A stretch of DNA of 64,000 nt, taken from positions 43,455-107,454 of IMG/VR virus record IMGVR_UViG_3300031760_000016. One strand, 5' to 3'. Of this stretch, positions 12,860 through 57,337 are shown in pieces. Source of the DNA: a virus (taxonomy: Duplodnaviria > Heunggongvirae > Uroviricota > Caudoviricetes). The notes beneath the pieces are model-generated. The model did not search any database. It was not told where the DNA came from and saw nothing but the letters and a program-made list of their open reading frames with translations. Within the stretch, counting starts at the first letter, position 1; the number at the start of each line of letters is the position of its first letter. Both the position numbers and the translations under genes were made by a program.

Positions 12860-13106
12860 ATGACTCCCTAATTTTTTAGCGAAGTGCCACAATTGAACAC
12901 GCCGCAACGAGCCGTGTATTCAATTCTGGTACCTCTGCTGGATAATAATTATGCATGCTGTGAAAAACGAATTTTGCTACCTTGTTTTTCGTTATCAACA
13001 CAAGATGTGGTGGGTTAGGACTCCTGATTGGTGCTATATATTGCGATATGAAGGTCTGCAAAACCTTCATTCTCCGGTCCGAATCCGGATGGCACCTCCA
13101 AACTTT

Positions 13107-13139
13107 GGGAGTTCTGTTGAAGCGGGGCTCCCTTTTTTT
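13107..13139 (+). terminator. Possible terminator at the convergent junction of plus- and minus-strand blocks
   Basis: gggag...ctccc stem followed by ttttttt (13133-13139). Confidence 0.35.
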
Positions 13140-13145
13140 GTGCAA

Positions 13146-21278: not shown

Positions 21279-22164
21279 CAAAGAGGTATTTAGACTATAT
21301 CTTCACCCTACGCACACATCTGTAGGGGGTTCGCACTCTTCAAATCGACCTGTATAGACCATAATTCATCGGACATCCATGCCGGTTGGCATTCATATCC
21401 GAGGTAAGCCTTATACAGCATTGAAGGGACGAGATAGGGGATGATCAAACTGAAGAAAATGTTGTAGCTCTCCTTCTTGATTCTGAGCCTTGTGAATTTC
21501 CCGCGCTTGACCAATGAGGTTTTGATGTCATAGTTTTCCAGAAGAGCATCCTGAATGGTCTTGATGTCGTCGTATGTATATCGGTCTGTGCAGAAATCAA
21601 CGCGCCTGTCGGTGATTGTACCTTTACTCCGTCCGACCAGGCAGACGTAACCGTCTGACATGTACCAGTTTGCCAGACCGTACGGCGTGAGCCAGTCGAG
21701 CGCTTCCCGGGTGATTATTCTGTGGCGGTAATCATCATAGAAGTTGTTGTATATTTTGGTAAAATACGGATGGGCGAGTATTATGTATTCCCAGTTCTCC
21801 TGATGATTGCACCAGCCTGAATAATGCTCCGGCGTGTAAATGACTTTGGATTTAAAACCCGAGCAGCTTTCGATTTCCTCTGCGATATTATTGATGAAGT
21901 CCTGATGAATGCTCTTGATTCTGAATGCCCGCTTATGGACACCCTTGTCTATCATCCCGTCACCGAGTATTAGTCCTGTTAAGAACCCTCTTAACTCTGA
22001 ACTGTTCATATGTTATAGCCCCCTATAACTGTTTTTTCGATTTGATTTTAGTCGTTGAACCTTCCTCATATTTCTGAGGCTTGGCTGCTGATTGCCTTTC
22101 GGTTTCCAGCAATTCGCGAACGATTGTTTTCATGAGATTGCTCTCAAGCCCTGCGCAAAAGTTC
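21279..22164 (-). mobile_element. Group I intron in nrdJ carrying a LAGLIDADG homing endonuclease ORF
   Basis: Exon 1 stops reading 5 codons after NPC; exon 2 resumes in frame after a G. Minus strand shows Q-like AAUCAGCAGCCAAGCC, R-like AAGGUUCAACGACUAA and, near the 3' end, S-like GAAGAUAUAGUC. The HEG ORF sits between them. Confidence 0.7.
21308..22009 (-). CDS. LAGLIDADG-family homing endonuclease (intron-encoded)
   Basis: 233 aa. GFLTGLILGDGMIDKG is a LAGLIDADG motif. Own start and stop inside the intron. Confidence 0.6.
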   Translation of the reverse strand: MNSSELRGFLTGLILGDGMIDKGVHKRAFRIKSIHQDFINNIAEEIESCSGFKSKVIYTPEHYSGWCNHQENWEYIILAHPYFTKIYNNFYDDYRHRIITREALDWLTPYGLANWYMSDGYVCLVGRSKGTITDRRVDFCTDRYTYDDIKTIQDALLENYDIKTSLVKRGKFTRLRIKKESYNIFFSLIIPYLVPSMLYKAYLGYECQPAWMSDELWSIQVDLKSANPLQMCA

Positions 22165-22971
22165 ACAGGGATTTGTGCCAGCGTATTCAAAGTTCTCATA
22201 TTCACTCAGCAGGTTCCAGCTGGAGATCATGTCCCAGAACAGCATTCCGGGTTCTCCCATGTCCCAGTTGTTCTCCGCGATGTGATGGAACAGCTGCCTT
22301 GCGTTTACGGTTTTGCGAATGGTTTCGCCGGTTTCGGAGCGCGTGAACCTGAGTTCAAACGGCTCATCGTTTTCCACGGCCTGCATGAATTCATCGGACA
22401 TGCGGACGGAAATGTTGGCTTTGGTGACGCGATCGAGATCCTTCTTGATGTCCACGAATTCCTCGATGTCCGGGTGATCACAGCTCAGAGAGAGCATCAG
22501 CGCACCGCGCCGGCCATTCTGGGAAATCAGCCCGGTAACCATGGAATACAGATCCATGAACGACACCGCGCCGGAACTCGCCTTTGCCGCGTTTCTCACG
22601 ACCGCGCCCCTGGGTGCCAGCTTTGACAGGTCAGTGCCGCATCCTCCGCCGTACGAATACGTGCGAGCCAGCTTCTTGGCGCAATCAAAGATGGATTCGA
22701 GGTTGTCCTCAGGAGGCGTGACGACATAGCAGTTACTATAGCTGATTTTCTTTCCTTCTTTTGTGAGTCCGCGGTTGGCGAGGATGCGCCCTCCAAACAG
22801 GAATTTCTTTTCCAGAATCAGGCGTTTGACCTGAGGGTCATTACCGCTCACTCTGGTCACCCATTCCAGAAAGCTTTCGCCATCATTGCGGTATTTCTGC
22901 TCCCAGATGTTTATGCCGATCTGATTATCAGCGCCGAGCCAATCCTGTACCGTCATTTCTCTGGCATCCAA
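22165..22971 (-). CDS. nrdJ: Class II ribonucleotide reductase, exon 1
   Basis: Blocks IWEQKY...LEWVTRVS, SNCYVV and GGGCGTDLSKLAPRGA; ends ...YAGTNPC at the intron insertion point. Confidence 0.7.
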
Positions 22972-34966: not shown

Positions 34967-35992
34967 TTACTTGCCGTAGAATGCCTGTTTCCAGTTGTTG
35001 TAGTCCGCAGTGTATATCCGCTTGAATTTAGCGATCACGGATGACATTGGGAAGTTCTTGCTCGTCTTGTAGGGCTTGCCTTCGGCTTCGCGCTGGGCGA
35101 CAATGTCCTGAACGAAGCCGTCAATGTCCGGTTTTCTGCCGGCCTGCTCTTCGGTGTACCAGCGGTAGAACAGGCCGGACAGCCTGATCCTGTCAAAGGT
35201 CAGGGCGTGGGGGACATCATCTGTCAGAGCGCCGGCTTGTTCCGCATTCCGCATCAGCTTTGTCCAGGTGGGCATGAACGTGCTGGCGACCCAGCGGTCC
35301 GGGGAGACCTGGCGCTTGTTCAGCTTTCCACGCAGGATTTGATTGCCATCCGCCCGCTCGTAGCTCCGCGTGAAGCTGGAACTGCCGTTGACGCAGGGTT
35401 CTTCGAAGAGTGTCGCGTCGCAGGCGATCCTGAAGTCCATGAGGGAGGGGGAGTACATCGGGTAGGTCTTGCCGTTGTACGTGATCTGCTGTGTCACGAA
35501 GTTGACGTTCTCTTTGGTAACGAACGGAACGTCTTTGGAGTCAAAACCCATGAAGGCCAGCCACATGAAGACCCTGTAGATGACGTCGACGGTTCCGAGA
35601 AACGACGGCCTTGTGGTACAGTTCAGCGCCTTTTCCAGATGCTCCGGGGATGAAACCATTTCCCTGCGGATACCCTGTGAGTTGTCGACGACGACCTTGT
35701 GGATGCTGCTTCTGGTTTTGTCCAGACCGTTGCGCATGCGCCACGTAGCGTATTCCTTGTACTCCGACAGGAGCATGACGGCGTAAGCATGCTTGGAGCC
35801 GACAATCAGGTTGAAGGCATCCTGAAGGATGGTCAGTGGCTGCCGGGTGAAATCGGTGCCCCAGACCTTTTCGAACGGGACGAAATACTCGAGCGCCATG
35901 ATGGCCGTGTTTCGCGTCTTTGTCGACTTTTTGCCCTCCCGGTAGACGTCCTCGATAAACCGCTGCTGATCCGGATTGAGATCCTGAGGCAT
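34967..35992 (-). CDS. Hypothetical protein (start coupled to the MazF-like gene; weak resemblance to recombinase C-terminus)
   Basis: 341 aa. Its ATG overlaps the stop of the upstream MazF-like ORF (ATGA). Confidence 0.4.
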   Translation of the reverse strand: MPQDLNPDQQRFIEDVYREGKKSTKTRNTAIMALEYFVPFEKVWGTDFTRQPLTILQDAFNLIVGSKHAYAVMLLSEYKEYATWRMRNGLDKTRSSIHKVVVDNSQGIRREMVSSPEHLEKALNCTTRPSFLGTVDVIYRVFMWLAFMGFDSKDVPFVTKENVNFVTQQITYNGKTYPMYSPSLMDFRIACDATLFEEPCVNGSSSFTRSYERADGNQILRGKLNKRQVSPDRWVASTFMPTWTKLMRNAEQAGALTDDVPHALTFDRIRLSGLFYRWYTEEQAGRKPDIDGFVQDIVAQREAEGKPYKTSKNFPMSSVIAKFKRIYTADYNNWKQAFYGK

Positions 35993-36432
35993 TACGCAGG
36001 CACCCCCTCGTCATTCAGTTCCACGGCGCGTTGCCAAGCCTGAATAATTGATTCCATATCCATGAACGAGATGGCCGACGAAGCCATGATGCTTGATGCG
36101 GCGATCTGCTTCATGTATTTGCCAGAAAGGGTGGTGATGTAATCGCCCAGGTCGTCCTTTGAGATGCATTGCGGATTCTCGCAGAGCACCATGCTGTCCA
36201 TCGGAAGGCCGCTGTCGTGAGAAGAAATGAGGACGTGCGTGGGAAGCTCGAGCCGTTTCAGGCGGCTGGTCAGCGGCAAAACCACCAGGTTGGGACTATA
36301 CATGTTTCCTTTGTTGTTCTGGAAAATGACTGCCGGTCTGTTTCCGGACTGAACGCTGCCAGATCCGGTGAAAGTGGCGTAATAGACGTCGCCGATCCTT
36401 GGGATTCTGTTCAGAGTTGCCATTAACCTCAC
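35992..36432 (-). CDS. MazF/PemK-family toxin-like protein with about 35-aa C-terminal extension
   Basis: 146 aa. RIGDVYYATFTGSGSVQSGNRPAVIFQNNKGN...VVLPLTSRLKRLELPTHVLI parallels PemK/MazF (GDIYwvdf...G.E..G.RPalVvsnd...vvvvPlTS..k..lPthV). Confidence 0.65.
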   Translation of the reverse strand: MRLMATLNRIPRIGDVYYATFTGSGSVQSGNRPAVIFQNNKGNMYSPNLVVLPLTSRLKRLELPTHVLISSHDSGLPMDSMVLCENPQCISKDDLGDYITTLSGKYMKQIAASSIMASSAISFMDMESIIQAWQRAVELNDEGVPA

Positions 36433-37200: not shown

Positions 37201-37228
37201 TTGCTATATCGCACTGCGATATAATTAG

Positions 37229-37301
37229 AGCTGCCAACAGGAATCGAACCTGCAACACCCGGTTTACAGGACCGGTGCTCTGCCTGTTGAGCTATGGCAG
37301 C
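37229..37301 (-). tRNA. tRNA, anticodon loop CCUGUAA (probably Thr-UGU; position 33 is C, which is atypical)
   Basis: Manual fold: acceptor GCUGCCA/UGGCAGC, D arm GCUC/GAGC, anticodon stem CCGGU/ACCGG, T arm GCAGG-UUCGAUU-CCUGU. No encoded CCA. Confidence 0.55.
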
Positions 37302-37428
37302 ATAATCACTGTCTCCAACCTTTCCGACACCGCCATGGTTCAGCGCCTTACTCGTGAAGAGACAGTGATGACGGTTGTCGTTCTCTGTGGGGCGTCAGCC
37401 CACATCATCCAGCCGCAACGACTGGCGC

Positions 37429-37503
37429 TGGTGGAGAATATCGGATTCGAACCGACAGCCTTTAGCTTGCAAAGCTACTGCGCTACCGCTGCGCCAATTC
37501 CCC
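37429..37503 (-). tRNA. tRNA-Ala (UGC)
   Basis: Acceptor GGGGAAU/AUUCUCC with G3:U70, anticodon loop UUUGCAA, T loop UUCGAAU, encoded CCA. Confidence 0.7.
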
Positions 37504-37529
37504 AGAGGCTCCCGGTTTGGGAGCCATGT

Positions 37530-38648
37530 TTAAACTGTGAACCTGATCGGTCCGGTTTCCGGACACTTCTTGAGAACTACGCGGACAACGGGGTTTGAAT
37601 TCTCGGCCTCAGCTGCAGCGGCTCGTTTTTCCTCAGGGAGCTCATAGAAGTCATCTTCGTCCCATTTATCCATGTCGATGCCGTCCGTGACGACATACTC
37701 GCCGTCTACAATTGTTGCAAGAGCCGGCGTGAATGAAAAACCGAACTGATGTTTGCGTTCAAAGTTTCTCACGCTTACCCATTTGACGCTATTCATGTCA
37801 GTCATGTAGATCTTTTCGCGCCAGGCTTCATAGACAGAACCGTCCTTGCGAATGGCCATGATGTCGAAATAGAGGCAATCCGCCCTGGAAATATTCAGGT
37901 CGTTCAGGGTTTCCTTGAGCGTGTAGCCCTGATTGAGTTCAAAGGCGATGGCTCGGAGGTAGTCGTACGGCATGTCGACCGCGCCGGAAAGCGCAACCAG
38001 CTGGTCGATTTCTTCGGAATATTTGGGGTCGACCGTGTCTGTCAGGTACTCGCGAACCTCATCCTGACTGGGTGCTGTCATGGAGAAATGGTAGTGAAAG
38101 CGGCCCGGGCGGTTGAGCATGTAGGGACTCAGGTCGCTAAGGTTGTTGCAGGTGACGATGAAGAGCTTATGACCGCCCTCGATGCCGTCAAAGAGCGTCA
38201 ACATTTCGTCCTGCGGATTGTATTCCTTGGTTTTGGCAAAGGTCTTTTCGAACTCATCGAAGATGACCACGCAGTTCTGATCGATTGACGACAAAAAGTC
38301 AGAGATGCCCGGGATTGCCGTGTTCACGACGATGACCGGAAGCCCCTCCTGAATGGCGGCCTGAGCGAGCAGGCGGACGAACAGGCTCTTGCCAATGCCC
38401 TTCTGGCCGGACAGGAGCACGCCGAAGTTCCGCTTTGCGATGTGATAGGAACGCAAAACCTTGGCGACCTTCTCGTTGGACTTGCCGTAGATCTTTTCCT
38501 CTGTAACCGCCAGATCGTCGCGGTGGGTAAGGAAAAACCCCGACATATCGCTGAACTGGACGCCATATGAGGCGACCGGAAGTGCGTGATAGGTCTTTAC
38601 GGCGTCACCGTAGACCTGGAAACGGTTGCCGGAATTGACGATGTTCAT
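37530..38648 (-). CDS. AAA-family ATPase
   Basis: Walker A GQKGIGKS, Walker B VVIFDEFE, and NRPGRFHYHF (AAA second region of homology). Start moved to the internal ATG at 38648 (RBS AAGGAG 9 nt upstream) because the ORF-track start overlaps tRNA-Lys. Confidence 0.6.
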   Translation of the reverse strand: MNIVNSGNRFQVYGDAVKTYHALPVASYGVQFSDMSGFFLTHRDDLAVTEEKIYGKSNEKVAKVLRSYHIAKRNFGVLLSGQKGIGKSLFVRLLAQAAIQEGLPVIVVNTAIPGISDFLSSIDQNCVVIFDEFEKTFAKTKEYNPQDEMLTLFDGIEGGHKLFIVTCNNLSDLSPYMLNRPGRFHYHFSMTAPSQDEVREYLTDTVDPKYSEEIDQLVALSGAVDMPYDYLRAIAFELNQGYTLKETLNDLNISRADCLYFDIMAIRKDGSVYEAWREKIYMTDMNSVKWVSVRNFERKHQFGFSFTPALATIVDGEYVVTDGIDMDKWDEDDFYELPEEKRAAAAEAENSNPVVRVVLKKCPETGPIRFTV

Positions 38649-38671
38649 AGGCAAAAACTCCTTTATTTGAT

Positions 38672-38746
38672 TGGTGCGCCAGGTGGGAATCGAACCCACT
38701 GTGCCGGGATTAAAAGTCCCGTGCCTTACCGGTTGGCTACTGGCGC
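38672..38746 (-). tRNA. tRNA-Lys (UUU)
   Basis: Acceptor GCGCCAG/CUGGCGC, anticodon stem CGGGA/UCCCG with loop CUUUUAA, T arm GUGGG-UUCGAUU-CCCAC, encoded CCA. Confidence 0.7.
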
Positions 38747-38780
38747 GAAAGTGGAGGGCTTTTAAGCCCTCCGGGTAAAG

Positions 38781-38865
38781 CGGTCGTGGTAGGATTCGAA
38801 CCTACGGACGGTTTCCCGCCGGCAGTTTTCAAGACTGCTGTCATAAACCGCTCGGCCACACGACC
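38781..38865 (-). tRNA. tRNA-Ser (UGA), class II with long variable arm
   Basis: Acceptor GGUCGUG/CACGACC, D region GCCGAGCGGUU, anticodon stem GCAGU/ACUGC with loop CUUGAAA, long variable arm, T arm GUAGG-UUCGAAU-CCUAC. Confidence 0.65.
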
Positions 38866-40680: not shown

Positions 40681-41112
40681 TTACCAGTTACTCGTATCAG
40701 TGATGTCGTACTCAGCGCCACAAATTGGACATATGACGGTTGTGGAAATTCCGATACCTGTACCAAACTGCTTTACATACGGGAATCTACCGCTATCAAT
40801 CTTGTAACCTTTACCACAATTTTCATGCTCAGCAATAAATTGCTTATATCGCTCCAGCTCCAGGTCAGAACCCAGTACCACCACAGCATATTTCAGCTTG
40901 TTTTTGAGAATACGGTTTTCTGATTCATATTCATTTATTGTGTCTGCCCTGACCTCTTCGCGCGTCTTTTGAGCTTGCTTACGAGCGGAATCTGCCTTGC
41001 GCTCATAGTATTCTACAGAATCCTTTACAAGCCTGGAGAGATCATCAGCGCTATAAACATGCGTCAAAAAACGGTTGTCATACCTGTCCAAGAAAATTGA
41101 ACTAATGATCAT
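40681..41112 (-). CDS. Coiled-coil protein with C-terminal zinc ribbon
   Basis: C-terminal CPICGAEYDITDTSNW. Start trimmed to the internal Met at 41112 because the longer ORF overlaps the upstream gene by 245 nt. Confidence 0.4.
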   Translation of the reverse strand: MIISSIFLDRYDNRFLTHVYSADDLSRLVKDSVEYYERKADSARKQAQKTREEVRADTINEYESENRILKNKLKYAVVVLGSDLELERYKQFIAEHENCGKGYKIDSGRFPYVKQFGTGIGISTTVICPICGAEYDITDTSNW

Positions 41113-41143
41113 CACCACCAATATTGAATACTGCTTTATTGGA

Positions 41144-41635
41144 TCAAAACCAAAATCTCCACCATTCTTCAATAAATTCAAAGATTTTGGTCTTACCTTC
41201 AAAATCTTGTGCTGCTTCTTTAACTGTGCAATGAACATCATCGATATAGTCGGCATAATGCCAGAATTGATTGATCTTTGGATACCATTGATACTTTTCA
41301 ATATCATCCCCCAAGTCTTTTTCAATTTCATCCAGCATAAAATAGAAGGACTGGTACAGGAAGCTCTGGAATCCAACTTCGTTGACAACGGCGTCCCAGT
41401 CGTTCTTTGCTTCCATATCGACCAGTTTGTTATGAATGCGATCGAGAAGCTCGTTGCATTCCTTTGCAGTGATGTCCTCCATTTTCAGCCAGTCATTTCG
41501 GTTCATTTGCATTGCCTCTCTTTCAATTTGGCACTGGCGGCAGGATTTGCACCTGCGAAATCTCCCTGGAAAAACCGGTTGATTCGGGCGCATGCAGTGT
41601 TTGCAGCTCACCCGAGGGGTTTGGCTCCTTCCCAC
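41144..41635 (-). CDS. Hypothetical protein
   Basis: 163 aa, ends in FIEEWWRFWF. The true start may be an internal Met. Confidence 0.35.
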   Translation of the reverse strand: MGRSQTPRVSCKHCMRPNQPVFPGRFRRCKSCRQCQIEREAMQMNRNDWLKMEDITAKECNELLDRIHNKLVDMEAKNDWDAVVNEVGFQSFLYQSFYFMLDEIEKDLGDDIEKYQWYPKINQFWHYADYIDDVHCTVKEAAQDFEGKTKIFEFIEEWWRFWF

Positions 41636-41682: not shown

Positions 41683-42177
41683 TCAGTTCCACCTTGGCGG
41701 GTATTCGCACAGAAGGACTTCTCTCTCGCCGAGTACATCATTTATCATGGGAAGAATTTTGCCTTCCCAGTCGCCGTTGCCTCTCGCACAGCCAATTCTG
41801 TAAGGCATTGCGATCGTCCAATTGTTCACTGAAGTCAGATCGGCGAGCTGGTGCAGGCACTGATTGAAGGCCGCATAGTTTGTGTAAACCCTGCTGTGGT
41901 CACGACCATAATCATACTGCGCAAACATGTTTGCGACAAAAACCCTTGGTGTTTTATCAGCGTCGAACAATGCAGGACAGAGTTGGACGTGTCCAAGCAA
42001 CTTTATTCTGTCGCTTTCATAGCAATCGCACATATATTTGTACGCGCTGTATACGTCCGGGAAGTTTTTCTTGACTTGGCCTGCAACGCCGCTGCCCATG
42101 ACGCCCATGCAGTTTACCTGATGCGCGATGATCCTTGCGTATGTTTCGAAAACGCTGCACTGAAGGTGACGAATCAT
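41683..42177 (-). CDS. Macro-domain protein (ADP-ribose binding or processing)
   Basis: 164 aa. IIAHQVNCMGVMGSGVAGQVKKNFPDVYSAYK matches the macro-domain N-terminal glycine-rich ADP-ribose pocket (VNaAN..l.gGgGVagAI..aaG). Confidence 0.6.
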   Translation of the reverse strand: MIRHLQCSVFETYARIIAHQVNCMGVMGSGVAGQVKKNFPDVYSAYKYMCDCYESDRIKLLGHVQLCPALFDADKTPRVFVANMFAQYDYGRDHSRVYTNYAAFNQCLHQLADLTSVNNWTIAMPYRIGCARGNGDWEGKILPMINDVLGEREVLLCEYPPRWN

Positions 42178-42629
42178 AGCTGACTCCCAATTGAACCGAG
42201 CTTGAGTTCAGGCGTTTCTTCCGCCTTCGCCTGTTCTGAGACCCAAAGGTCATAAATCAGGTTTGCAGCCCGGTTCAGGACGGCGTCGGATTCCTTCTCG
42301 GGGTCTTTATCTGCGTAGCAGGTGCGATCGATGATGTCCGTCAGCCACATGACCGGGATTACAGGAACGTTGCGAGCCTCCTTGATCAGTTTCCGAACGC
42401 GGCGTGTGACATCCTGAGCGCTCATTCCGTCCAGTTTTCCACGGAAGACGCATTCGAAATTAGCCTTGAAGTCATCGCGGCTTATCAGGTCGTACACCAA
42501 ATTCACCTCCGGATTGATTTTTGGCACAACAAAAGAGACGGCGTGTCGCCGTCCCATCAAAGTGCCCTGCCTATAGATCTTTCTTGTCCAGGTTAAAACG
42601 AATTCTGTATTCCTCTTTGATCTCCGCAA
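42174..42629 (-). CDS. Hypothetical protein
   Basis: 151 aa. Confidence 0.35.
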   Translation of the reverse strand: MRRSKRNTEFVLTWTRKIYRQGTLMGRRHAVSFVVPKINPEVNLVYDLISRDDFKANFECVFRGKLDGMSAQDVTRRVRKLIKEARNVPVIPVMWLTDIIDRTCYADKDPEKESDAVLNRAANLIYDLWVSEQAKAEETPELKLGSIGSQL

Positions 42630-43062: not shown

Positions 43063-43625
43063 TACAAGTACCCCTTAGTCAATAATATGCCTATGATGTA
43101 ACTATTCTATTACGCTTCTGGCTGTTTGTCAACCGCCTTGCTTTTGTAGTGCTCCTTGGTTATGTCAGCCATGGCGTGGTATGAAGCTTCTACGCCTTCC
43201 TTCCAGCCCCTATCATAATCCCCGAAGTACTTTGAAGCGGCGTTCCAGCCCTCCGTCCAGCCCTGCGACCACGGGCTGCCTTCGCGGTATTGCGTGAAAC
43301 ATATGACGATGCCTGCCGAGATAGCTCCGCCCGCGAAGCAGATGAAATTCAGCATTGCCCCTGACATGACCACCCGTCCTTTACCGGTTCAAAGGTGTAG
43401 ATCGAGTTCAGAGTGTGAACTACGACGGAATCAGCGGACATGTCGAATTCCGTCACGGTCGAGGTGCTCATCCAGCCATCGTTGGGCGTGCCGTCCGCGT
43501 TCTCATAATACTGGACGACCAGCCGTCGTTTAGTATGCACACCGAGTGGAAACCAACAGACGCGGCCGATCCTCATGGGATAGCGGCCGTCATCCCTGTC
43601 GTAGCCATCGAGATCCGTGATGGAT

Positions 43626-45027: not shown

Positions 45028-45492
45028 TTAGTCCTCCGGCAATCCGGGGTAGGTGATCATGCCTGCATACTCAGTGAGCGTCTTCCCGTCGAAGTACCAG
45101 CACCAGTAGTTGCCGTCGGTGTCCTCAAGGAAAACCTTGGCACCCGGCTCGACAAACGGCGCGATGGCATTCATCCATCCTCCGGATTCATCGTTCTCAG
45201 GGCTATCGACTTCCCAGCCGAGGCGTCCGTTCTCAAGGCTGATGTCGGTGACATTGCCTTCGCTGTCCGTATACACCTGCCATTCCTTAGCCTCAAGCTC
45301 ATCCTCAAGCGTATCGTGCTCGGGGACCGGATGACGCCGGTACCATGCGTACTTCTCAGTCATGCGCCGTTCGAAATCCTGAATGGCGGCCAGAGCGGCG
45401 GCCTTGTTGGACGCTCTGATTCTGAAATTCACGCTGCCGGCAAAGACATCGCAACCCATATCATCACCACTTTCTCCATTTGAAGACTTCAA
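45028..45492 (-). CDS. Hypothetical protein
   Basis: 154 aa. Confidence 0.35.
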   Translation of the reverse strand: MKSSNGESGDDMGCDVFAGSVNFRIRASNKAAALAAIQDFERRMTEKYAWYRRHPVPEHDTLEDELEAKEWQVYTDSEGNVTDISLENGRLGWEVDSPENDESGGWMNAIAPFVEPGAKVFLEDTDGNYWCWYFDGKTLTEYAGMITYPGLPED

Positions 45493-46294
45493 TTTTGGGA
45501 TGAGAACCCGTGTACACGCTGTCCGTCGTGAACAGCCGGTCGATCAGACCCTCCGTCGTAAGCAGTTCGCTCTTCAGCACGGAATTCTCACAGTGCGAAC
45601 AGTAGGCGAAGACGCCTTTGACGCCCATGCGCCGCAGCGTCATCGCAGAGTAGTAGAACGTGTCGCCGTTGGTACAGATGTCATCGATCATGAGCACCGA
45701 TTTGCCGGTGATGTCCATTCCCTCCGGCACGATGACCTGAAGTCCGATGATCTTACCGGTTTCCCATATTCGCTCCTTGTCGCCAAAGGCGTAAACCTCT
45801 CCCGCATCGGCGTAGCGGCGAACCGCGCCCTTGTCGGGATAGTAGGGGAGGATGTCCTCCGCGCCGATCTGTGCACAGGCTTTGGCAATGTAGAAGCTGG
45901 GCTTGTCGACCATGATATTGTCGATCACCCCGGCGACCACGTCGGAATGGGGGTCAAAAACCCTGACGCAATGGAAGTTGAGGGAGTTGATGAATTTGCC
46001 AAAATACTTGAGGGTGAAAACCTCATCGTTGCTGCGGATGCGATCCATCCTGGCATTGGGAACATAGGGCAGTTCAAGGTCGATGGTCTCGAAGCGGTGG
46101 CCGCGAAGCCAGCCGACCACGTAGAACAGCGCCGCCATTTCTTCTTCGCCCTGATAGTTCCATCTCACGACGGGCGTGAAAATCTCGGCGGTTTCAACGA
46201 CGGACTTGATCGCGTCCTCGTTGATCTTCAGGTTCAGAGTGCCGTCCGGAAAGTGCTTGGAACAGTCGATGGGATACCCGTTGAGTGAAATCAT
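45464..46294 (-). CDS. Ribose-phosphate pyrophosphokinase (Prs)-family protein; candidate ADP-ribose pyrophosphokinase-like enzyme
   Basis: 276 aa. LPYVPNARMDRI ~ Prs IPYFGYARQDRR; SVLMIDDICTNGDT ~ CVLVDDMIDTGGT (PRPP-binding loop); VFAYCSHCE ~ VFAYATHPI. Confidence 0.65.
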   Translation of the reverse strand: MISLNGYPIDCSKHFPDGTLNLKINEDAIKSVVETAEIFTPVVRWNYQGEEEMAALFYVVGWLRGHRFETIDLELPYVPNARMDRIRSNDEVFTLKYFGKFINSLNFHCVRVFDPHSDVVAGVIDNIMVDKPSFYIAKACAQIGAEDILPYYPDKGAVRRYADAGEVYAFGDKERIWETGKIIGLQVIVPEGMDITGKSVLMIDDICTNGDTFYYSAMTLRRMGVKGVFAYCSHCENSVLKSELLTTEGLIDRLFTTDSVYTGSHPKIEVFKWRKW

Positions 46295-46303
46295 GCCAGC
46301 CTC

Positions 46304-46837
46304 CTAGTCTGCGTTGATGACGTCGATGCAGCACTGCTTCATGATTTGCAGCGCGGCCTTGTGGTTGTCTTCGGTGGTTCCGGCGCAGCAGGACGCGTCC
46401 ACGGCGATGGGAACGTCGGGATAGTGCGCCCGCAGCAGAAGCGCATTGGAAACCACACAAATATCCGTGCAAAGACCGATGATTTCGATGCGGTCGTAGT
46501 GCTCCTGATCGCAGATGTAGTTCGCCAGATTGACGCTGCCGAAGGTGCCCTTCAAAAACCCGTCGGCGGATTCCGGCAGGGCTTCCATGACGCGATGGTC
46601 AAGCTGCCAGCCCGGCGAGCGAACGACGCAGTGCTCGACCGGAATGTGTTCGCCCTCAAGCGTTTCCAGATAGTCGTCAAAGTGCGTGTCCTTCGTGTAG
46701 AACACATCGCCGTCCCAATCGCGAATCTTATCGCAAACCCTGGGGACGATGGCTTCCGCCTGCGCAGACCCCAGCGGACCGGAGATGAAGTCGTTCTGCA
46801 TGTCCACGACAATGAGCAGGTTGTGGCTCAAAAGCAT
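46304..46837 (-). CDS. Isochorismatase-family hydrolase, nicotinamidase (PncA)-like
   Basis: 177 aa. LIVVDMQNDFISG (catalytic Asp block) and IEIIGLCTDICVVSNALL (catalytic Cys block) as in PncA/isochorismatase. Confidence 0.65.
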   Translation of the reverse strand: MLLSHNLLIVVDMQNDFISGPLGSAQAEAIVPRVCDKIRDWDGDVFYTKDTHFDDYLETLEGEHIPVEHCVVRSPGWQLDHRVMEALPESADGFLKGTFGSVNLANYICDQEHYDRIEIIGLCTDICVVSNALLLRAHYPDVPIAVDASCCAGTTEDNHKAALQIMKQCCIDVINAD

Positions 46838-46948
46838 CAGTCCTTTCTTTCTTTTTTGGTAATGGTCATGCCATCCACAGAGCGCCGAAGCCTAAATTGA
46901 TGCGAGGCGCTGTGCCCTCAGAGCCGAGCTGCTTGGAAAATTAAACTG

Positions 46949-46981
46949 ATAAACTCAAGTTATTCCTTAACTTGAGTTTAT
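46949..46981. repeat. Perfect 14-bp inverted repeat with 5-nt spacer
   Basis: ataaactcaagtta-ttcct-taacttgagtttat. Confidence 0.8.
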
Positions 46982-47809
46982 TGGGTTAACTTTACAAGCA
47001 GTGAGCAGGGGGCGGAGCTTTACTTCGGATGTCATCGCGAAGCCTCGGTATCGAGCGTCTATGTATCAGACCGGAAATCAAAACACCTCATCACGAACGG
47101 TGCGCATAAGACGCGGGGCGTCAGCATTCATCTGCAGCTGGCCGGCGCTCTTCATCAATCGCCGCGCCTCTTACGGCTTTCTTAGCAATGCACATAATGT
47201 TCGAAACAAAGCGCCTTTCAATCCCTCAACACCGGAATCTGCATGGCATGTTGTGTGGCGAACGGATATATCTCTGTGTAATTCAAATTCGTTATTCGTA
47301 TATCCGCTGTTAATTTGTATGTCCGCCACATTGCTACAACGGCGTTGCCGCCGGTATAACCGCATCAGGTTGGTCGTGCTTTCCCTTTGGAAACAAAAAC
47401 TTGGTCTTGCATACATGGCAGCCACGTGGAGAACCGCTGCCCAATCTGCTTTTAATGGCGAACCTGAACCCGTGGATTTGCGTAGTGCATAACCCATAGT
47501 GGATACTCAGTATTGAATAGGAACAAACTGCCCGAGGGCTCAATCAATAGTCAATGCTGAATATTCAGTCAATCAATGGCAAATAGTCAATGAGAAAACG
47601 TCGGGACTTCGGCAGCGAATATTTCTACAGCCTTCGCTGCGGGAGCAGCCCGATCACAATCTTAACATTTCTTCATATTTACCTTGAAGAATATCGGGTA
47701 TCACCCGTCATATTAGCGGTGCTTTGTTTTGTTTTTTACTTCAGTCAGAGCACCGAATGACAGAAGAAAAGCAGGAATGCGGTTTTCGCCACATATGCAA
47801 GACCTTTAT

Positions 47810-49475: not shown

Positions 49476-49943
49476 TCAGTCGTTGAGCAAGGCGATGCAC
49501 CTGTCAACAATCTCACGGGTCAGGCCGGTATTGAAATCCGTCTTGACCAGATGCTCCATGTGATCGCCCATATCGGAATCGTCGTCGAGTATGACATAGC
49601 GTTCTGTGTTGGGGTGGCGACTGAACCATGCGGTAATGTCGTCGCCGCGCTCGCTTCCGACATAAGGCGTTTGATCCGCCACCTCGATGCCGTGATGATG
49701 AAGCTGAGTGATCAGGTTGTCATATGCCGTAGGAATTCTGCGCCATGCGGATGAGATGACGATCCTCGCGCCGGTCTCATCCACCAACAGCTTGAGCAGG
49801 CGGAGCGCCCGGTCTTCCAACAGATCCTCTGCGTAGACCCGGACGCCCTCCTCTTTATACATTCTCTGTGCCCAGGTGCCGTTGTTCAAAACGCCATCGA
49901 CATCCAGGAAGATAACTTTTTCCAAACCCTCCAGTGGGATCAC
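49476..49943 (-). CDS. HAD-superfamily phosphatase-like protein
   Basis: 155 aa. VIFLDVDGVLNNG (HAD motif I DxDGT/V), then ISSAWR and ILDDDSD blocks. Confidence 0.5.
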   Translation of the reverse strand: MIPLEGLEKVIFLDVDGVLNNGTWAQRMYKEEGVRVYAEDLLEDRALRLLKLLVDETGARIVISSAWRRIPTAYDNLITQLHHHGIEVADQTPYVGSERGDDITAWFSRHPNTERYVILDDDSDMGDHMEHLVKTDFNTGLTREIVDRCIALLND

Positions 49944-51956: not shown

Positions 51957-53102
51957 TCAGGACTGTTCCTCAGATCTCAGCACGCTGCGGATCATCTTCA
52001 TGACGTTGACCCCGTGCTTTTCGTTAAACCACTTGATGAACTCCTCGACGTACTTCTTTTCGACCATCTTGTAGTAGCTGATCTGGCCGGAAAGCACATA
52101 GACGTCGTGGATATCCCACTTATCACCGCTCTGGTAATCCCTTATGAAGCTGGTGAGCGCCGCCTTGAGCTGGAGCTTCTTCTTGCGGCCGATGGTGATC
52201 TGATTGTCCCTGTTGAGCATGACGCCCAGATTCCAGTTCCTTCCGGCGCTGGATCCGTAGCGCGTCTTTTCGTCCTTCAGCTGGAACGGGGCGTTGAAGC
52301 TTGCCAGAACGGAATTGATATAGTCGCACATCTCCTTCGGATCGAAATCCTGCCTGTGCGAAAGCTGGATGTCATCGGCATACCGGGTGTAGACAAAACC
52401 CTTCTTGACCACGTCATTCATGATGCGGTGGTCGATGGGAACCATCATCAGGTTTGTCAGGGTGGGGGAGATCGGCGTTCCCTGCGGAAGCCCGCCGTCG
52501 AGGAAACACAGGCTCAGGGCTTTGGCAAGTTCATCCCTGCCGCCGGGAGCTTTGACGACTTCGCTGAACGGGAAGATGCGGGAAACCATATCGAACAGGA
52601 ATTCCTCAGTGGTGCTGCCGAAGAAATTGGAGAAATCCGTTTTCAGGAACCACCGGCTTTTGTTCTGCTGGTGGCGCTTGATGGCGTCGATGGTACTGCG
52701 CCCCTTGACGTAGGCGAAAGCCGCCGTGTGATACAGCGCACCGAAGTTGTTTTCCAGAATCGTGCGGAGCGTGCGCAGAGCGCCCATCAGTTCCGGCAGC
52801 GGTTCATCGATCTTGCGGTAACCCTTGGTGCGCTTGGGGATGTAAAACGTGTGGTAGAGCGAATGGCGATCCTTTTCAAACAGAAAAGCATAGGACGTAT
52901 TGAACGTGTGCAGAAGGCTGATGAGACCGGGGACGTTGAGATTGCGGGTGTAAGCCGGGCTGACCCAGTTCACCAGATGAGTCACCGTGCCGGTGATCTG
53001 GTGCTTGGGCGTGTCCCAGCCAAGCGGAACCCTGCCGAGAAGCACATCCTCAAACGAAAGCTGATGTGTTCTCGGCGTTTGCATGACGGTGATGTACGGC
53101 AT
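51957..53102 (-). CDS. Reverse transcriptase (retron/defense-RT-like, no maturase or endonuclease domain)
   Basis: RT motifs FLKTDFSNFFGS (motif 2), GLPQGTPISPTLTNL (motif 4), VYTRYADDIQL (YADD, motif 5), NLGV...ITIGRKKK (motifs 6-7). Start set to the ATG at 53102 with AAAGGAG 6 nt upstream; the ORF-track TTG start is at 53129. Confidence 0.75.
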   Translation of the reverse strand: MPYITVMQTPRTHQLSFEDVLLGRVPLGWDTPKHQITGTVTHLVNWVSPAYTRNLNVPGLISLLHTFNTSYAFLFEKDRHSLYHTFYIPKRTKGYRKIDEPLPELMGALRTLRTILENNFGALYHTAAFAYVKGRSTIDAIKRHQQNKSRWFLKTDFSNFFGSTTEEFLFDMVSRIFPFSEVVKAPGGRDELAKALSLCFLDGGLPQGTPISPTLTNLMMVPIDHRIMNDVVKKGFVYTRYADDIQLSHRQDFDPKEMCDYINSVLASFNAPFQLKDEKTRYGSSAGRNWNLGVMLNRDNQITIGRKKKLQLKAALTSFIRDYQSGDKWDIHDVYVLSGQISYYKMVEKKYVEEFIKWFNEKHGVNVMKMIRSVLRSEEQS

Positions 53103-53262
53103 ACGAACTCCTTTCTGATTGATCTGCAATCTGAATGCAGTGCGCGGTCTTCAGGGTAACCAGGAAGAGCTGAGGGATGTGATGATTGGGAGTCGAAACC
53201 CTGCCTGCTGAATCTCGCCGACTGCTGATGTGTCGGGAAAATGCGATCTTTTTCGACCTGTT

Positions 53263-53450
53263 GGAGCTTGGATGACCTAGAAGTGGTGGCTTTCAAGCTC
53301 GGACCGGTCGTCGCCGGATCAGCACCTGGGAGGAGAGCTCGATCGGCCGCCTTCCGCCGGCTGCCGCGGGTCGCCCCGTCTTCCCGACAATTTGTTACTC
53401 CGGATGTGATCACAGAGCATTGGGAAACCCAATAATGCATTGCAGACTTG
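53263..53450 (-). repeat. Non-coding element B, within the structured leader upstream of the RT
   Basis: Paralog of element A. Followed on the minus strand by hairpins, e.g. GCCCGCC-GGAA-GGCGGGC at 53450-53467 and AUUGGG-UUU-CCCAAU. Confidence 0.6.
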
Positions 53451-53472
53451 CCCGCCTTCCGGCGGGCTTGAA

Positions 53473-54237
53473 TCACATTTGAATCATGGACCGGAACAGT
53501 TCCAGAAGACCTTCGTGCTCATGGGTTTTTGAGGTTTCCAGACACCAGATGTGCTCGCCGGAATCAATTTCGATCACAGGGGCGTCCGGCTTGATGCGAA
53601 TCATGGGGTGGATGAGAAACACATCCCGGCACAAACCATGTGTCATGGAGCCAAAGTTGTATATGAGGATATGCCCTGCGTCCGAAACCCCGGTTCGAGT
53701 CATGATGTTCGAGTGGGGAACTTCGCCGATGGCCTGACTGAGCGCCGGGAGATACTCACCGTCCGGAACCTCGGGTACATCCACAAGCTCAGACTCGCTG
53801 GGGATCGAAACCTTGCAGGTGACCGTCTGCGCCCTGCCAAATTCCTTAATACTTCCGGGCGGAACGGCGATCGGAACCTCTCGGTCGATCAGCATGGCCA
53901 GCTCTTCGTCGTCAAAGAAGGTAAGGAAGCCGTCATACACGCCGTCCGGGCATCTGTCATACTGATGCATCGGAGTGTATGTAAAATCCTTGCCGCCGTT
54001 CAGCCACTGGAAGAGGTTGGAATGGGGAAAGTAGTTGTTGCCATAAGCGCGTTTTGCGGAAGACGGGCTTTCGAATTCGCGCCTGTCGAAGGAACGCCTG
54101 CCGACAGACCTCATGGCGAAAAGGTCATTGGAATCGGAAACCTTTTTCCAGAGAATGTCATCGTTGTTATCACCCAGATTGACGCCGATGTTCAGCTTGG
54201 TTCCCAGCGGCAGTTCACTGATCGTCAATATGCTCAC
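53473..54237 (-). CDS. Hypothetical protein
   Basis: 254 aa, no recognisable motif. Lies between the E1-like gene and the RT leader. Confidence 0.45.
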   Translation of the reverse strand: MSILTISELPLGTKLNIGVNLGDNNDDILWKKVSDSNDLFAMRSVGRRSFDRREFESPSSAKRAYGNNYFPHSNLFQWLNGGKDFTYTPMHQYDRCPDGVYDGFLTFFDDEELAMLIDREVPIAVPPGSIKEFGRAQTVTCKVSIPSESELVDVPEVPDGEYLPALSQAIGEVPHSNIMTRTGVSDAGHILIYNFGSMTHGLCRDVFLIHPMIRIKPDAPVIEIDSGEHIWCLETSKTHEHEGLLELFRSMIQM

Positions 54238-54259
54238 CTCCTTCGAGAATCGGGATTGA

Positions 54260-54955
54260 TCAGAACGCGTCCAGCTGGTAGGTGAAGGCGTCCAACAGGA
54301 TCAGCTTCTTGATGCCGTTGCCCTTGGCAAAGTTAATGAAGTTGGAAACCCCCAGCGCCACGATCGCCTTGACCGTGGAGCAGACGGACAGGGTCAGGTT
54401 GCAGGCGGAAACCGGCGTTTCGGCCTTGGCTTCATCGTGGGTGAACTGCATCGAGTTCAGAAACGCTTCCACCATCCTGCGATCCTCCCAGTTGGCGGCG
54501 TAATGCTGGGCGTCGGTCAGCCGCATCCGGAAGTCGAACATGCCCTTGATGAACAGGTTGTCCTTGTTGGCGGTGGCGATCTCGCGGCGCAGATCGATGT
54601 TGTCCACGCAGAGGAACACATAGCCGCTCAGCTTCTGGCCGACATAGCCCTTCTCAACCAGTTTCAAATCCCGGTCGATATCGGGATTTATCTTGTGCAG
54701 ATACTCGGCCAGCGCCTGAACCTTGGTCTTGCCGATGTCTTCCTGAGTGAACAGCTGGTTGGCAATGTTGTGGGGCTCGACGAAATCGAAGTCGTACAGG
54801 GTGATGCGGGTGACGCCGTAGCGCACCAGATTCTCAGCGACCGTGGAGCCGATCGCGCCGCAGCCGATGATGTGGATGCGCTCAGGGCACTTTTCAGGCT
54901 GGAAAAACTCGTAGCTCTTTGCCAAATCGATCATGAATTCAATCCTCCCTGTCAA
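54260..54955 (-). CDS. ThiF/MoeB/E1-like adenylyltransferase
   Basis: 231 aa. IHIIGCGAIGSTVAENLVRYGVTRITLYDFDFVEPHNIANQ is the Rossmann GxGxxG plus the D.D.VE.SNLNRQ ThiF signature. Confidence 0.7.
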   Translation of the reverse strand: MTGRIEFMIDLAKSYEFFQPEKCPERIHIIGCGAIGSTVAENLVRYGVTRITLYDFDFVEPHNIANQLFTQEDIGKTKVQALAEYLHKINPDIDRDLKLVEKGYVGQKLSGYVFLCVDNIDLRREIATANKDNLFIKGMFDFRMRLTDAQHYAANWEDRRMVEAFLNSMQFTHDEAKAETPVSACNLTLSVCSTVKAIVALGVSNFINFAKGNGIKKLILLDAFTYQLDAF

Positions 54956-55856
54956 ATCCGATCTTGGACTTCTTGCCGAAGATCATTTCGTCGTAGTCGG
55001 TCTCATCGTCCAGATAGAGGCCGGGGTACTGGCCGCTGCCGCCGAAATCCTTTTTCTGCTTGGATTTGGATTTCTTGCTGGTCGGGTAGTTCGGTACATT
55101 CGTACGGGGATAGTCATATCCGCCATAGTTACCATAGACGCCGTAGTTGCCAGAGCCATAGTTGTACGCGGAGTTGATCGAAGCGACATTCCCGGTGGTC
55201 TTGGCGGCCGGCGTGCTGACCTTGACCACGTCCTTGGCGTCGCTCAGGAACGCATCGAAATCGCAATCCTCATCGTAGATTCCGATGTCGACGTCCTTGT
55301 CCTCATACAGGGTGTTGTTCTTCAGGTCGTAAACCTTGATGTTGCGCTCGTTGCGCTTGTTGAAGATGCCGAAGATGTAGAATGCGTCCTCAGCGACCTG
55401 AGCCAGAATGCTTTCCCGGTGCTGATCGTCCACAGCGGACGGGCTGGTGGCCATGTTGACGTGGGAATGCCCATGGAATCGGATCGCGTTCGCGGTATCG
55501 TCATCCATCTCCATGAGCCACTTGGTGTAGCCTTCGAAATCCGTGTTGACCGTCGTCCCGGTCACCACCTGAGGGTAAACCATGATGTCGTGAATGACGA
55601 AGCAGTCGTCGGCCAGGCGCTCCACGGTGCCATGCCAGCCAACCTCGCTGGTAAAGCTGTCGACCAGCGTCTTCATCTTGATATAAGCCCGGGGCGTAAA
55701 CAGAACGGAAACCCCGGTGTCATCCGCGCCCTGATAGGTGAAGTTCTTCTTGTAGTTGATGCTGCCGTCGCTCATGCGGTGCTTGCGCAGCATCTCGTTG
55801 AACTCCTGGGTCATCTGGGCGATCAGTGCCTCAGTGAACTTGATCGGCTTGGACAT
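54939..55856 (-). CDS. JAB/MPN(+) metalloprotease-like protein with Gly/Tyr/Asn-rich low-complexity tail
   Basis: 305 aa. HSHVNMATSPSAVD fits the JAMM zinc motif HxHx7Sx2D. C-terminal region GNYGVYGNYGGYDY is low complexity. Confidence 0.6.
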   Translation of the reverse strand: MSKPIKFTEALIAQMTQEFNEMLRKHRMSDGSINYKKNFTYQGADDTGVSVLFTPRAYIKMKTLVDSFTSEVGWHGTVERLADDCFVIHDIMVYPQVVTGTTVNTDFEGYTKWLMEMDDDTANAIRFHGHSHVNMATSPSAVDDQHRESILAQVAEDAFYIFGIFNKRNERNIKVYDLKNNTLYEDKDVDIGIYDEDCDFDAFLSDAKDVVKVSTPAAKTTGNVASINSAYNYGSGNYGVYGNYGGYDYPRTNVPNYPTSKKSKSKQKKDFGGSGQYPGLYLDDETDYDEMIFGKKSKIGFDRED

Positions 55857-57337
55857 TATTCGTTGCCTCCTTCTGCATTCTCATTCGAATTGGGATCCTG
55901 AGCGTTCAGCCACTCGACGGCTTCCTGAGGGGAGACGTTCTTGCCGTCGGGAAGTTCGATAACCTTCTCAGACGTGGTGAACAGCTGGTCGAGGAACGGA
56001 CCGAAGGTGACGCCTTCGGCGATGTTGATGCTGCCGGCGGAAGCGATGCACTGCATGATCGCGCCGATCGGATCGCCATCGCGAAGTCTTTCCTCGATCA
56101 GCGGGCGATTATTCCCGATGCAGGAGTGCCGATTGAGATGGGTATTGGGAATATAGGAGTTATAATCATCGCCGAAGTAGTGGTTGCGCTCGGTGTCAAC
56201 CATGCCCCGCATATCGATGGCAAAGTAGGCACACATGCGAACCTTGAGGACGGGCTCATCGCTGAAGAGCGCATCCATGAGCTTGCGGCGAACGGCTTTC
56301 TCTCTGAAGAACGGACTGTAGTCGCGTTCATTCCAGATGTGGGAGAAGTTGTTATCAACGAACCGGGAATACATTTCCGGATCGAAATTTACGAGGTAGG
56401 TCTTGATGTGGAAATGGATCATCTGCTCGTACGTGTTGATGATTTCCACGGATTTGTTTCCGATGAAAAACTCTGCGAGCTCATTGGACTCGCAGCCCTG
56501 AGCAATGATGGCCTTCAGGCCGGTCTGGGTGATCCGATAATCTTCGAGCTGCTTGATCAGCCTGCGATAGTTTGCAATAATATCATCGATCTGTACGTTG
56601 GTGTTGTCGATGTCACGCTCAATGGACTGCAAGCGGGCACGATTAGCACGCTTTTCAAAACCGTTGAGCATGCTGCGGATGAGCGTTTCACGCAGGTTGA
56701 AGTTGTCAGCGATGGCAGCCATGGTTTCAATGAAACTCTGAGATCCTTTCTTCTGAAGCGATTCCAGAAGCGAAATCTCAATGGCTTCCAGGGGCTTGTC
56801 CTTGAAATACCAGGGCATGTAGCGGGGAATGAAGGACTGGATGGCGTGGTAACTCTTTATCGTCATCCGCTTCACGAAGATGTAGGAGAGCTTGACCTCG
56901 GGGACGATGAACACAACGGTCGTGATGCCGAGCTTTTCGAAATACTGCTCGACGTCTACCAGTTCCTCTGCGGAATTGAAACCCGTTCGATTGAGTCCCT
57001 TGAAATTCTTGCGGATGCAATCCAGAGCGAATTCCGGATCGTCGTTGTCAACGGACACGGCGTAGACCGTATCCGAACGGTTCCTGGAACCGAAGATGGC
57101 GTCGAAGATGCGGTAGAAGGGGTTGTTTTCGTAGTCGTACTTGGTGTAGCCAGCGCGGAGATTGCGGAACGTAACCCGGTTGTTGCCCAATTCGATGCGC
57201 TTGAGCAGAAGTGCCCGCAACACCGCTACAAAGGTCACATCTTCGCGATACAGGTCACCTCCGACGGACTCGAACAGATTGCCGGCGTGTTCGGAAGTGA
57301 GCATGAGCTCGCTGCTTCTGATGCACTGATTGAACAT
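55856..57337 (-). CDS. Hypothetical protein (493 aa)
   Basis: Long ORF with no recognised motif. Its start overlaps the stop of the JAB gene. Confidence 0.45.
   Translation of the reverse strand: MFNQCIRSSELMLTSEHAGNLFESVGGDLYREDVTFVAVLRALLLKRIELGNNRVTFRNLRAGYTKYDYENNPFYRIFDAIFGSRNRSDTVYAVSVDNDDPEFALDCIRKNFKGLNRTGFNSAEELVDVEQYFEKLGITTVVFIVPEVKLSYIFVKRMTIKSYHAIQSFIPRYMPWYFKDKPLEAIEISLLESLQKKGSQSFIETMAAIADNFNLRETLIRSMLNGFEKRANRARLQSIERDIDNTNVQIDDIIANYRRLIKQLEDYRITQTGLKAIIAQGCESNELAEFFIGNKSVEIINTYEQMIHFHIKTYLVNFDPEMYSRFVDNNFSHIWNERDYSPFFREKAVRRKLMDALFSDEPVLKVRMCAYFAIDMRGMVDTERNHYFGDDYNSYIPNTHLNRHSCIGNNRPLIEERLRDGDPIGAIMQCIASAGSINIAEGVTFGPFLDQLFTTSEKVIELPDGKNVSPQEAVEWLNAQDPNSNENAEGGNE

Follow-up and report, generated by a model that had tools for sequence, protein, structure and literature searches.

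A 64,000-nt stretch of DNA from a virus of the Caudoviricetes (IMG/VR record IMGVR_UViG_3300031760_000016, positions 43,455 to 107,454; hereinafter the window) encodes on its minus strand a stand-alone macrodomain protein (the macro protein). The original prediction, made from the letters alone, had placed such a protein at 41683-42177 with no strand given. An open reading frame (ORF) occupies exactly these positions on the minus strand, and its fold and homologs confirm the assignment. The gene lies among the following features.

41683..42177, minus strand: macrodomain ORF of 164 amino acids, from ATG to stop, with H19, N22, loop 1 (G25-A32), Q87 and loop 2 (P125-W137).
42185..42189, minus strand: ribosome-binding site GGGAG, 7 nt upstream of the macro ATG, read from the sequence.
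42174..42500, minus strand: upstream ORF, 108 amino acids as called on related contigs; the longest ORF extends to 42629.
43104..43132, minus strand: promoter-like site TTGACA-17-TAGAAT, an 11/12 match to consensus only, which precedes the genes of a 163-aa protein, the 108-aa protein and the macro protein.
45464..46294, minus strand: Adps-type Prs-like protein, 276 amino acids, matched by a hidden Markov model (HMM) of Adps-like neighbours (E 2e-88).
46304..46837, minus strand: nicotinamidase-like protein of the isochorismatase family, 177 amino acids (HMM E 5e-79).

The 164-aa ORF is a genuine macrodomain gene, far beyond a chance ORF. An identical protein is recorded on contigs of one public sequencing run and of one JGI metagenome, a 96% identical protein is encoded on a 116-kb contig whose genes follow the order of the window, and proteins of 54–60% identity are encoded on related phage contigs of 57 kb and 123 kb. 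The macro start codon and the stop codon of the ORF before it overlap in the sequence ATGA (42174..42177), which suggests that the two ORFs may be translationally coupled, an arrangement typical of phage genes. That overlapping ORF was considered as a functional partner and rejected, as it has no family matches and is present in near-identical contigs only. A near-identity DNA search with 36–48 kb of the window found no match in 50,697 phage records; the virus is therefore not one of the known cultured phages.

The Pfam Macro model (PF01661) scores the macro protein at 19.6 bits (E 9e-4), below the gathering threshold of 22, and the family assignment therefore rests on PHROG, profile and structure evidence. 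Specifically, the protein matches phrog_335 with an E-value of 8.9e-39, and a single-sequence search also retrieves solved macrodomains. A profile built on 69 homologs, the set on which the conservation figures below are also based, matches Protein Data Bank (PDB) entries of BT1257 (9e-21), SCO6735 (2e-18), Mycobacterium tuberculosis DarG (2.6e-18), Poa1p (3.5e-15) and TARG1 (2e-10). The AlphaFold2 model computed from the 69-homolog alignment (predicted local distance difference test, pLDDT, 96.0; predicted template-modelling score, pTM, 0.91) adopts the three-layer α/β/α macro fold. With Foldseek, the best PDB matches to the model are BT1257, Poa1p, DarG, SCO6735 and TARG1, all with probability 1.0, and target-normalised TM-scores to solved macrodomains range from 0.76 to 0.85. 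Against BFVD, the model matches many phage macro proteins, one tk.4 product included. By both sequence and structure, the closest relatives are TARG1, DarG, SCO6735 and Poa1p, and the macro protein belongs to the ALC1-like class. The structure and class check asked for in the original prediction is settled in this way, in favour of neither a MacroD enzyme nor a DarG antitoxin.

MacroD-type enzymes carry the catalytic motifs Nx6GG[VLI]D and G[VIA][YF]G. This type was rejected, because the 69-homolog profile matches MacroD/nsP3 domains only at ~5e-3, as opposed to 1e-18 to 1e-21 for the ALC1-like class, and loop 1 of the macro protein (N22-CMGVMGSGVA) is without GG[VLI]D. A DarG antitoxin was rejected as well: the catalytic lysine is replaced by Gln, there is no C-terminal DarT-binding domain, and the NCBIfam DarG model (NF048014) gives 50.5 bits against a cut-off of 250 and aligns over profile positions 4-148 of 338 only. 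The PADLOC DarG model matches in its macro part only (positions 1-145 of 329, E 1.2e-14). General family scans of the neighbours revealed no toxin-sized or toxin-like gene adjoining the macro gene. As to a darT-like neighbour, neither the ORF upstream (42174..42629) nor the second ORF downstream (40681..41388) has a Pfam match, and no DarT-specific model was run window-wide; the directly downstream ORF (41144..41635) has no match in PHROGs, the sole search made with it.

The active site is strongly conserved. H19, N22, C23, G25, G30, A32, Q87, G91, P125 and W137 are invariant in the 69 homologs, while G28, S29, N83, F85, G129 and C130 are at least 90% conserved. An unconserved glycine-rich pocket had been named beforehand as the observation that would speak against a macrodomain; the pocket is conserved. 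HMM and multiple alignments place Q87 at the position of the catalytic Lys80 of DarG (Lys84 of TARG1) and of Q85 of SCO6735, and the published structure-based alignment of SCO6735 gives the same Gln/Lys equivalence (PMC9411070). SCO6735 and BT1257 both have Gln at the catalytic-lysine position, as does the macro protein with Q87. Judged from its alignment, the macro protein is a “Q-type” variant of the ALC1-like class, in which an invariant Gln takes the place of the catalytic lysine. In SCO6735, the Gln is proposed to position the substrate and a water network, and Q85A and Q85E substitutions abolish removal of ADP-ribose from thymidine in DNA; expression of SCO6735 rescues cells from DarT (PMC9411070).

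The SCO6735 catalytic residues H24, N27 and Q85 have invariant equivalents across the family. This conservation argues against a role in which the macro protein, without catalysing a reaction, binds or sequesters immune signals derived from ADP-ribose, for example those of Thoeris, as does the fact that both tested phage members are enzymes. Macrodomains do bind ADP-ribose derivatives, and some defence effectors use macrodomains as sensors, but a purely binding role is very improbable here.

SCO6735 (Streptomyces coelicolor, PDB 5E3B) and Bacteroides BT1257 (2FG1/2AFC) are the closest solved structures and sequences, and share the Gln-for-Lys replacement. Both are cellular proteins, ~30% identical to the macro protein. 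SCO6735 removes ADP-ribose from DNA thymidine and from proteins (PMC9411070), and its DNA-positioning residues Lys34 and Lys89 correspond to Ser29 and Gly91 of the macro protein. DarG (PDB 5M3E, 5M3I) and PhiKZ gp104 are of the same fold and class and conserve the equivalent of N22. Loop 1 is strikingly similar in this comparison (VNCVGVMGKGIA vs VNCMGVMGSGVA), but the catalytic Lys of DarG and PhiKZ gp104 (K80 or K78) is Gln in the macro protein, and DarG differs further from the macro protein in its C-terminal DarT-binding domain and in having darT as a neighbouring gene. PhiKZ gp104 is a K-type protein that was named AdfM and removes the ADP-ribose attached to DNA by DarT2 (PMC13309987); it matches the macro protein with an E-value of 1e-11. 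Yeast Poa1p (PDB 6LFQ), an ADP-ribose 1''-phosphate phosphatase, has the same fold (Foldseek E 1.7e-11), and its H23 corresponds to H19. Poa1p S30 and F152 are conserved neither in the macro protein nor in the phage Poa1p-like protein Adpp of Vibrio phage Gary (see below), and Poa1p has a Ser at the Gln/Lys position.

Cellular homologs with 34–42% identity (Lacrimispora, Enterocloster, Paenibacillus, Bacillus; loci L100-L168) are found in housekeeping neighbourhoods with no toxin partner. Many of the Lachnospiraceae homologs adjoin proteins that resemble, by eye, a NUDIX hydrolase and a 5'-3' exonuclease.

Among phages, tblastn detects macro homologs in 1,533 of 50,697 records, and the carriers include large Bacillus phages, PAK_P1-like Pseudomonas phages and T4-like phages, in which the gene is tk.4. 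Two recent studies assign functions to family members. The first concerns Tk.4. In a transposon screen, tk.4 was the single T4 gene needed on cells carrying DarTG2, and was named adfM (bioRxiv 10.1101/2025.11.20.689424); a clean tk.4 deletion sensitises T4 to DarTG2 (HIDEN-SEQ preprint, bioRxiv 10.1101/2025.11.20.689424). Tk.4 of the T4-like phage PP01 (L001:2498-2977) is 26% identical to the macro protein (BLASTP E 6e-15). Like Tk.4/AdfM, the macro protein is a stand-alone protein of ~160 amino acids with HxxNC, MGSGVAGQ, N-x-x-x-Q and IGCxxxGGDW motifs and the Gln (NLYTQYEPG in PP01), and its gene does not adjoin NARP1 genes. Unlike the macro protein, Tk.4 has a shorter loop after the Gln, and the host phylum differs.

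The second function is that of Adpp, a Poa1p-like macro protein found in 15% of NARP1 operons (bioRxiv 10.64898/2026.01.28.702374). Adpp of Vibrio phage Gary dephosphorylates ADP-ribose (ADPR)-1''-phosphate, the product of the NAD+ phosphorylase aRES, and the product of Adpp lets Adps and Namat rebuild NAD+, a route termed NARP1-AP (bioRxiv 10.64898/2026.01.28.702374). Gary Adpp (gp137; sequence from the preprint's supplementary table) is also of the Q-type (FNVYGQYHW) and is 30% identical to the macro protein (E 1e-13). The best pairwise match among the reference proteins is the NARP1-linked macro protein of phage PAK_P1 (31% identity, E 5e-24), which has almost the same QY[ND]YGR..RVYT loop.

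Tk.4 of T4-like phages and Gary Adpp, both Q-type, are 39% identical (E 1e-26), closer to each other than either is to the macro protein, and a neighbour-joining tree places Tk.4 among the NARP1-linked Adpp proteins. Because of this mutual closeness and this placement, sequence cannot separate the AdfM and Adpp roles. Most simply, AdfM and Adpp can be seen as a single enzyme family that may hydrolyse any group attached to C1'' of ADP-ribose. The two uses that the original prediction had offered for phage macrodomains, reversal of DarT-type ADP-ribosylation and processing of NADase products, are each documented for a family member, the former for T4 Tk.4/AdfM and the latter for Gary Adpp. Net charge, from a hand count of residues, was tried as a means of telling DNA from small-molecule substrates and was rejected, since T4 Tk.4, which acts against DarTG2, is an acidic protein.

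The gene context bears on both roles. The macro gene lies in a long co-directional early/accessory block of a large phage, with tRNA genes, rather than in the moron region to which the original prediction had assigned it. The Adps-like gene is located eight genes (3.3 kb) upstream of it on the same strand, and is intact and in canonical order with the PncA-like (nicotinamidase-like) gene. The Prs-like product scores below every cut-off of the phosphoribosyl pyrophosphate synthetase (PRPS) families (78 vs 113 bits for TIGR01251) and is without the C-terminal PRPS module, the loss of which is a reported signature of Adps (PMC13586617). The nicotinamidase-like product has its best PDB matches in the PncA proteins of Pyrococcus horikoshii and M. 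tuberculosis. Namat, which is indispensable for NARP1, is absent: profile HMMs of Namat and NadE (NAD synthase) found nothing in any frame of the 64-kb window or in the 4.4 kb past its right end, ~68 kb searched, and tblastn and HMM searches found no homolog of NADAR, Pnkp/Rnl, Thg1, NadE, RtcB or Namat in the window.

To place this arrangement, the 80 closest IMG/VR loci (35–45% identity) were surveyed, with neighbours clustered and then annotated. A 496-aa gene is directly upstream of the macro gene in 64 of ~80 loci, NadE is directly downstream in 67, and the Adps-like and nicotinamidase-like genes are within 1–4 kb, all on the same strand, in 66. The 496-aa protein is Namat, as it matches the Namat structures of SPbetaL1 (9W5W, 9W5X) with an E-value of 5e-116, versus ~1e-43 for canonical Nampt. 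When the loci were dereplicated at 70% identity, 26 lineages remained, of which 13 have all four partner genes and 4 have NADAR nearby. The original prediction had tied the macro gene to the Prs-like and nicotinamidase genes; synteny in these 13 lineages upholds the tie, but the core gene Namat was not found in the window.

The macro protein nests inside the clade of NAD-cluster macro proteins, and its own subclade has lost the arrangement. Among the 66 loci with an Adps-like gene, only that of the window phage and that of a near-identical contig lack Namat. The sister contigs with macro proteins of 54–60% identity (L005, L006) have an intact macro gene and no Namat within 8 kb on either side. 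L006 retains the nicotinamidase-like gene only; L005 has NadE 7 kb from the macro gene. In L005, the macro gene is followed directly by a gene of a NADAR domain (AdfN class; 8494-8967) and then by one of a 731-aa kinase/phosphatase/RNA-ligase repair protein (8964-11159). A NADAR gene is also located at the end of full NAD clusters, after NadE, in L030 and L101. In the cultured Bacillus phage PBC2, the macro gene is beside RecJ, 39 kb from Adps and Namat, so the distance between genes does not prove the absence of Namat.

One explanation of the macro protein is that it serves as an Adpp: it would convert the ADPR-1''-phosphate made by RES-domain NAD+ phosphorylases (aRES) to ADP-ribose, which an Adps-like enzyme together with an NAD-rebuilding route, NARP1-AP or a variant, would then recycle. 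The activity of Gary Adpp on this substrate, within the same Q-type family, the match to the PAK_P1 protein and the intact Adps-like and PncA-like genes of the window are consistent with this role, as is the presence of Namat directly upstream and of an Adps-like gene at a distance of 1–3 kb in 64 of ~80 loci and in 13 of 26 dereplicated lineages. The missing Namat and the eight-gene distance from the Adps-like gene, with the macro gene behind its own promoter-like site, argue against it, as do the sister lineages, in which the macro gene persists with neither Adps nor Namat close to it. The NARP1-AP preprint counts as Adpp a gene located within two genes of an Adps-Namat pair (10.64898/2026.01.28.702374); 13 of 26 related lineages have such an arrangement, and the window does not. 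We regard the Adpp role as the principal one as rather unlikely, although AdfM-like and Adpp roles are not mutually exclusive.

Together with the gene, fold, class, active-site residues, homology and synteny described above, the experiments on homologs, from which activity and substrate are taken, make it quite probable that the macro protein is an active ADP-ribose C1''-hydrolase used in counter-defence. Our tentative choice for its main substrate, held with somewhat less than even confidence, is DarT2-modified DNA, the macro protein then being a stand-alone AdfM-like de-ADP-ribosylase. Specifically, ADP-ribose would be held by both glycine-rich loops (residues 22-32 and 125-137) together with H19 and N22. 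Q87 would orient the distal ribose along with a network of water molecules, and the attachment at C1'' would thereby be hydrolysed and free ADP-ribose released. In a role resembling that of an orphan antitoxin, the protein would erase the ADP-ribose put by DarT2-type toxins on thymidines of replicating phage single-stranded DNA. A side activity on ADPR-1''-phosphate would be expected from the NAD-cluster ancestry of the lineage.

Several observations favour this AdfM-like role. Namat is almost always beside Adps in the surveyed loci and was not found here; without Namat, ADP-ribose pyrophosphate (ADPR-PP) has, to our knowledge, no use. The macro gene is intact and keeps every catalytic residue, down to 54% identity, without NARP1 core genes nearby. 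A promoter-like site of its own precedes the gene, which as a consensus match is weak evidence. Action against DarTG2 is the sole function shown for stand-alone members of the family, and SCO6735, the closest solved Q-type enzyme, is an efficient de-ADP-ribosylase of DNA thymidine (PMC9411070).

Other observations weigh against it. The role of Tk.4 is supported by genetic evidence from a preprint, and the macro protein is just 26% identical to Tk.4. The macro protein is inside a clade whose commonest setting is the NAD cluster, which points to Adpp ancestry; its best reference match is NARP1-linked, and the Adps-like and PncA-like genes are retained 3.3 kb upstream on the same strand. Lys34 of SCO6735, which is important for action on DNA, is Ser29 here, although it is Ser in Tk.4 too. 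The adjacency of macro and NADAR genes in L005 is not independent evidence, because NADAR also ends full NAD clusters. Finally, ~50 kb of the phage genome is outside the inspected sequence and could hold Namat. As to extending the phage genome, an exact look-up found no record of the 1781-aa protein encoded near the left end of the window, and the left-end 31-mer was unmatched in JGI metagenome contigs.

Other ADP-ribose conjugates could also be the main substrate, namely proteins or RNA mono-ADP-ribosylated by host toxins or phage ADP-ribosyltransferases, or O-acetyl-ADP-ribose. SCO6735 and TARG1, which are of the same class, de-modify proteins too, and some sources annotate homologs as O-acetyl-ADP-ribose deacetylase. 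However, those annotations are automatic, no phage family member has been shown to act in this way, and neither an ADP-ribosyltransferase nor a sirtuin was noticed in the gene neighbourhood. We consider these substrates improbable.

The five-gene cluster of the related loci (PncA-like, Adps-like, Namat, macro, NadE) is found in gut-phage contigs L007-L086, L089, L102 and L172. Of the 64 Namat proteins of the cluster, 59 have Ala and 5 have Ser in place of Asp215; a cluster of the Ala type is found, for example, in MT835544.1. Asp215 of Namat forms a hydrogen bond with the amide of nicotinamide, and the D215A substitution lowers NAD+ output ~8-fold (PMC12774641). The Namat proteins of SPbetaL1 and PBC2, which have no nicotinamidase or NadE neighbours, keep the Asp. 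The altered Asp215, together with the constant nicotinamidase-like and NadE genes, suggests that the cluster of the related loci, as distinct from the window, may follow a nicotinic-acid route: nicotinamide would be converted to nicotinic acid, nicotinic acid and ADPR-PP to nicotinic acid adenine dinucleotide (NaAD), and NaAD by NadE to NAD+. A literature search found no description of such a five-gene nicotinic-acid cluster.

It is conceivable, though doubtful, that a five-gene nicotinic-acid NARP1-AP was the ancestral setting of the macro gene's clade of gut and rumen phages and that the window phage carries a reduced form, with the PncA-like and Adps-like genes and a more distant macro gene but without Namat and NadE. 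If so, host enzymes would complement the reduced form, or the macrodomain would have been re-purposed as a stand-alone ADP-ribose eraser, with the corollary that AdfM (T4 Tk.4) and Adpp (Gary) would be one bifunctional family under two names.

The family, both of its functions and its occurrence in phages were described in 2025-2026. New in the present analysis are one lineage, that of phages of Bacillota from gut and rumen, the view of AdfM and Adpp as one family and the reduced NAD module. The “ADP-ribose eraser” macrodomains of phages, represented by AdfM and Adpp, are thereby extended to large phages of this kind. Since two published functions are found in proteins that are indistinguishable by sequence, annotation pipelines should assign neither name by homology alone. 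A conserved NAD cluster in which NAD+ may be rebuilt via nicotinic acid, with Namat altered, would extend the phage-bacteria NAD+ arms race, and is directly testable.

The rest of the window is that of a large phage with six tRNA genes. On the plus strand, the first 12 kb encode the 1781-aa protein (phrog_14959, a phage family with no assigned function), a Hoc-like protein and endolysins, followed by an integrase. The minus strand encodes a ribonucleotide reductase, a 1096-aa DNA polymerase, a primase, a DnaB-type helicase, an exonuclease and many small genes, and a GP88-family protein is also among the products of genes near the macro gene. The following further features were located.

13030..14075: tyrosine integrase gene adjoining a complete tRNA-Cys gene.
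19773..22971, minus strand: ORF of the ribonucleotide reductase large subunit, then ORF of a LAGLIDADG homing endonuclease.
35992..36432, minus strand: PemK/MazF-like toxin (Pfam E 2.8e-21), kept in related contigs.
37228..38865, minus strand: AAA ATPase (phrog_2376, E 1e-104), with a tRNA pair on each side (Thr, Ala; Lys, Ser).
46946..46984: inverted repeat whose stem measures 17 bp, in the gap on the upstream side of the nicotinamidase-like gene.
49476..49943: RNA-repair HAD domain, near the macro gene.
51957..57337, minus strand: reverse transcriptase (RVT_1) block, with DUF6273-like and ThiF/E1-like proteins and proteins of 305 and 493 amino acids without family matches.

No antitoxin was identified among the annotated neighbours of the MazF-like toxin. 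In 24 of the related loci, a homolog of the AAA ATPase is encoded close to the NAD cluster. The stretch from 46.9 to 47.8 kb, which contains the inverted repeat, is otherwise without a convincing ORF. The 4.4 kb past the right end of the window hold a 745-aa gene and a second integrase (L169:795-1613), which is located just past the end, at a point prone to breaks in assemblies of this phage. The large-subunit ORF of the ribonucleotide reductase matches the C-terminal half of the family profile only, which suggests that the gene is interrupted by an intron or intein. The RVT_1 block, which is also conserved in L006 and L169, could be a retroelement or a counter-defence module.

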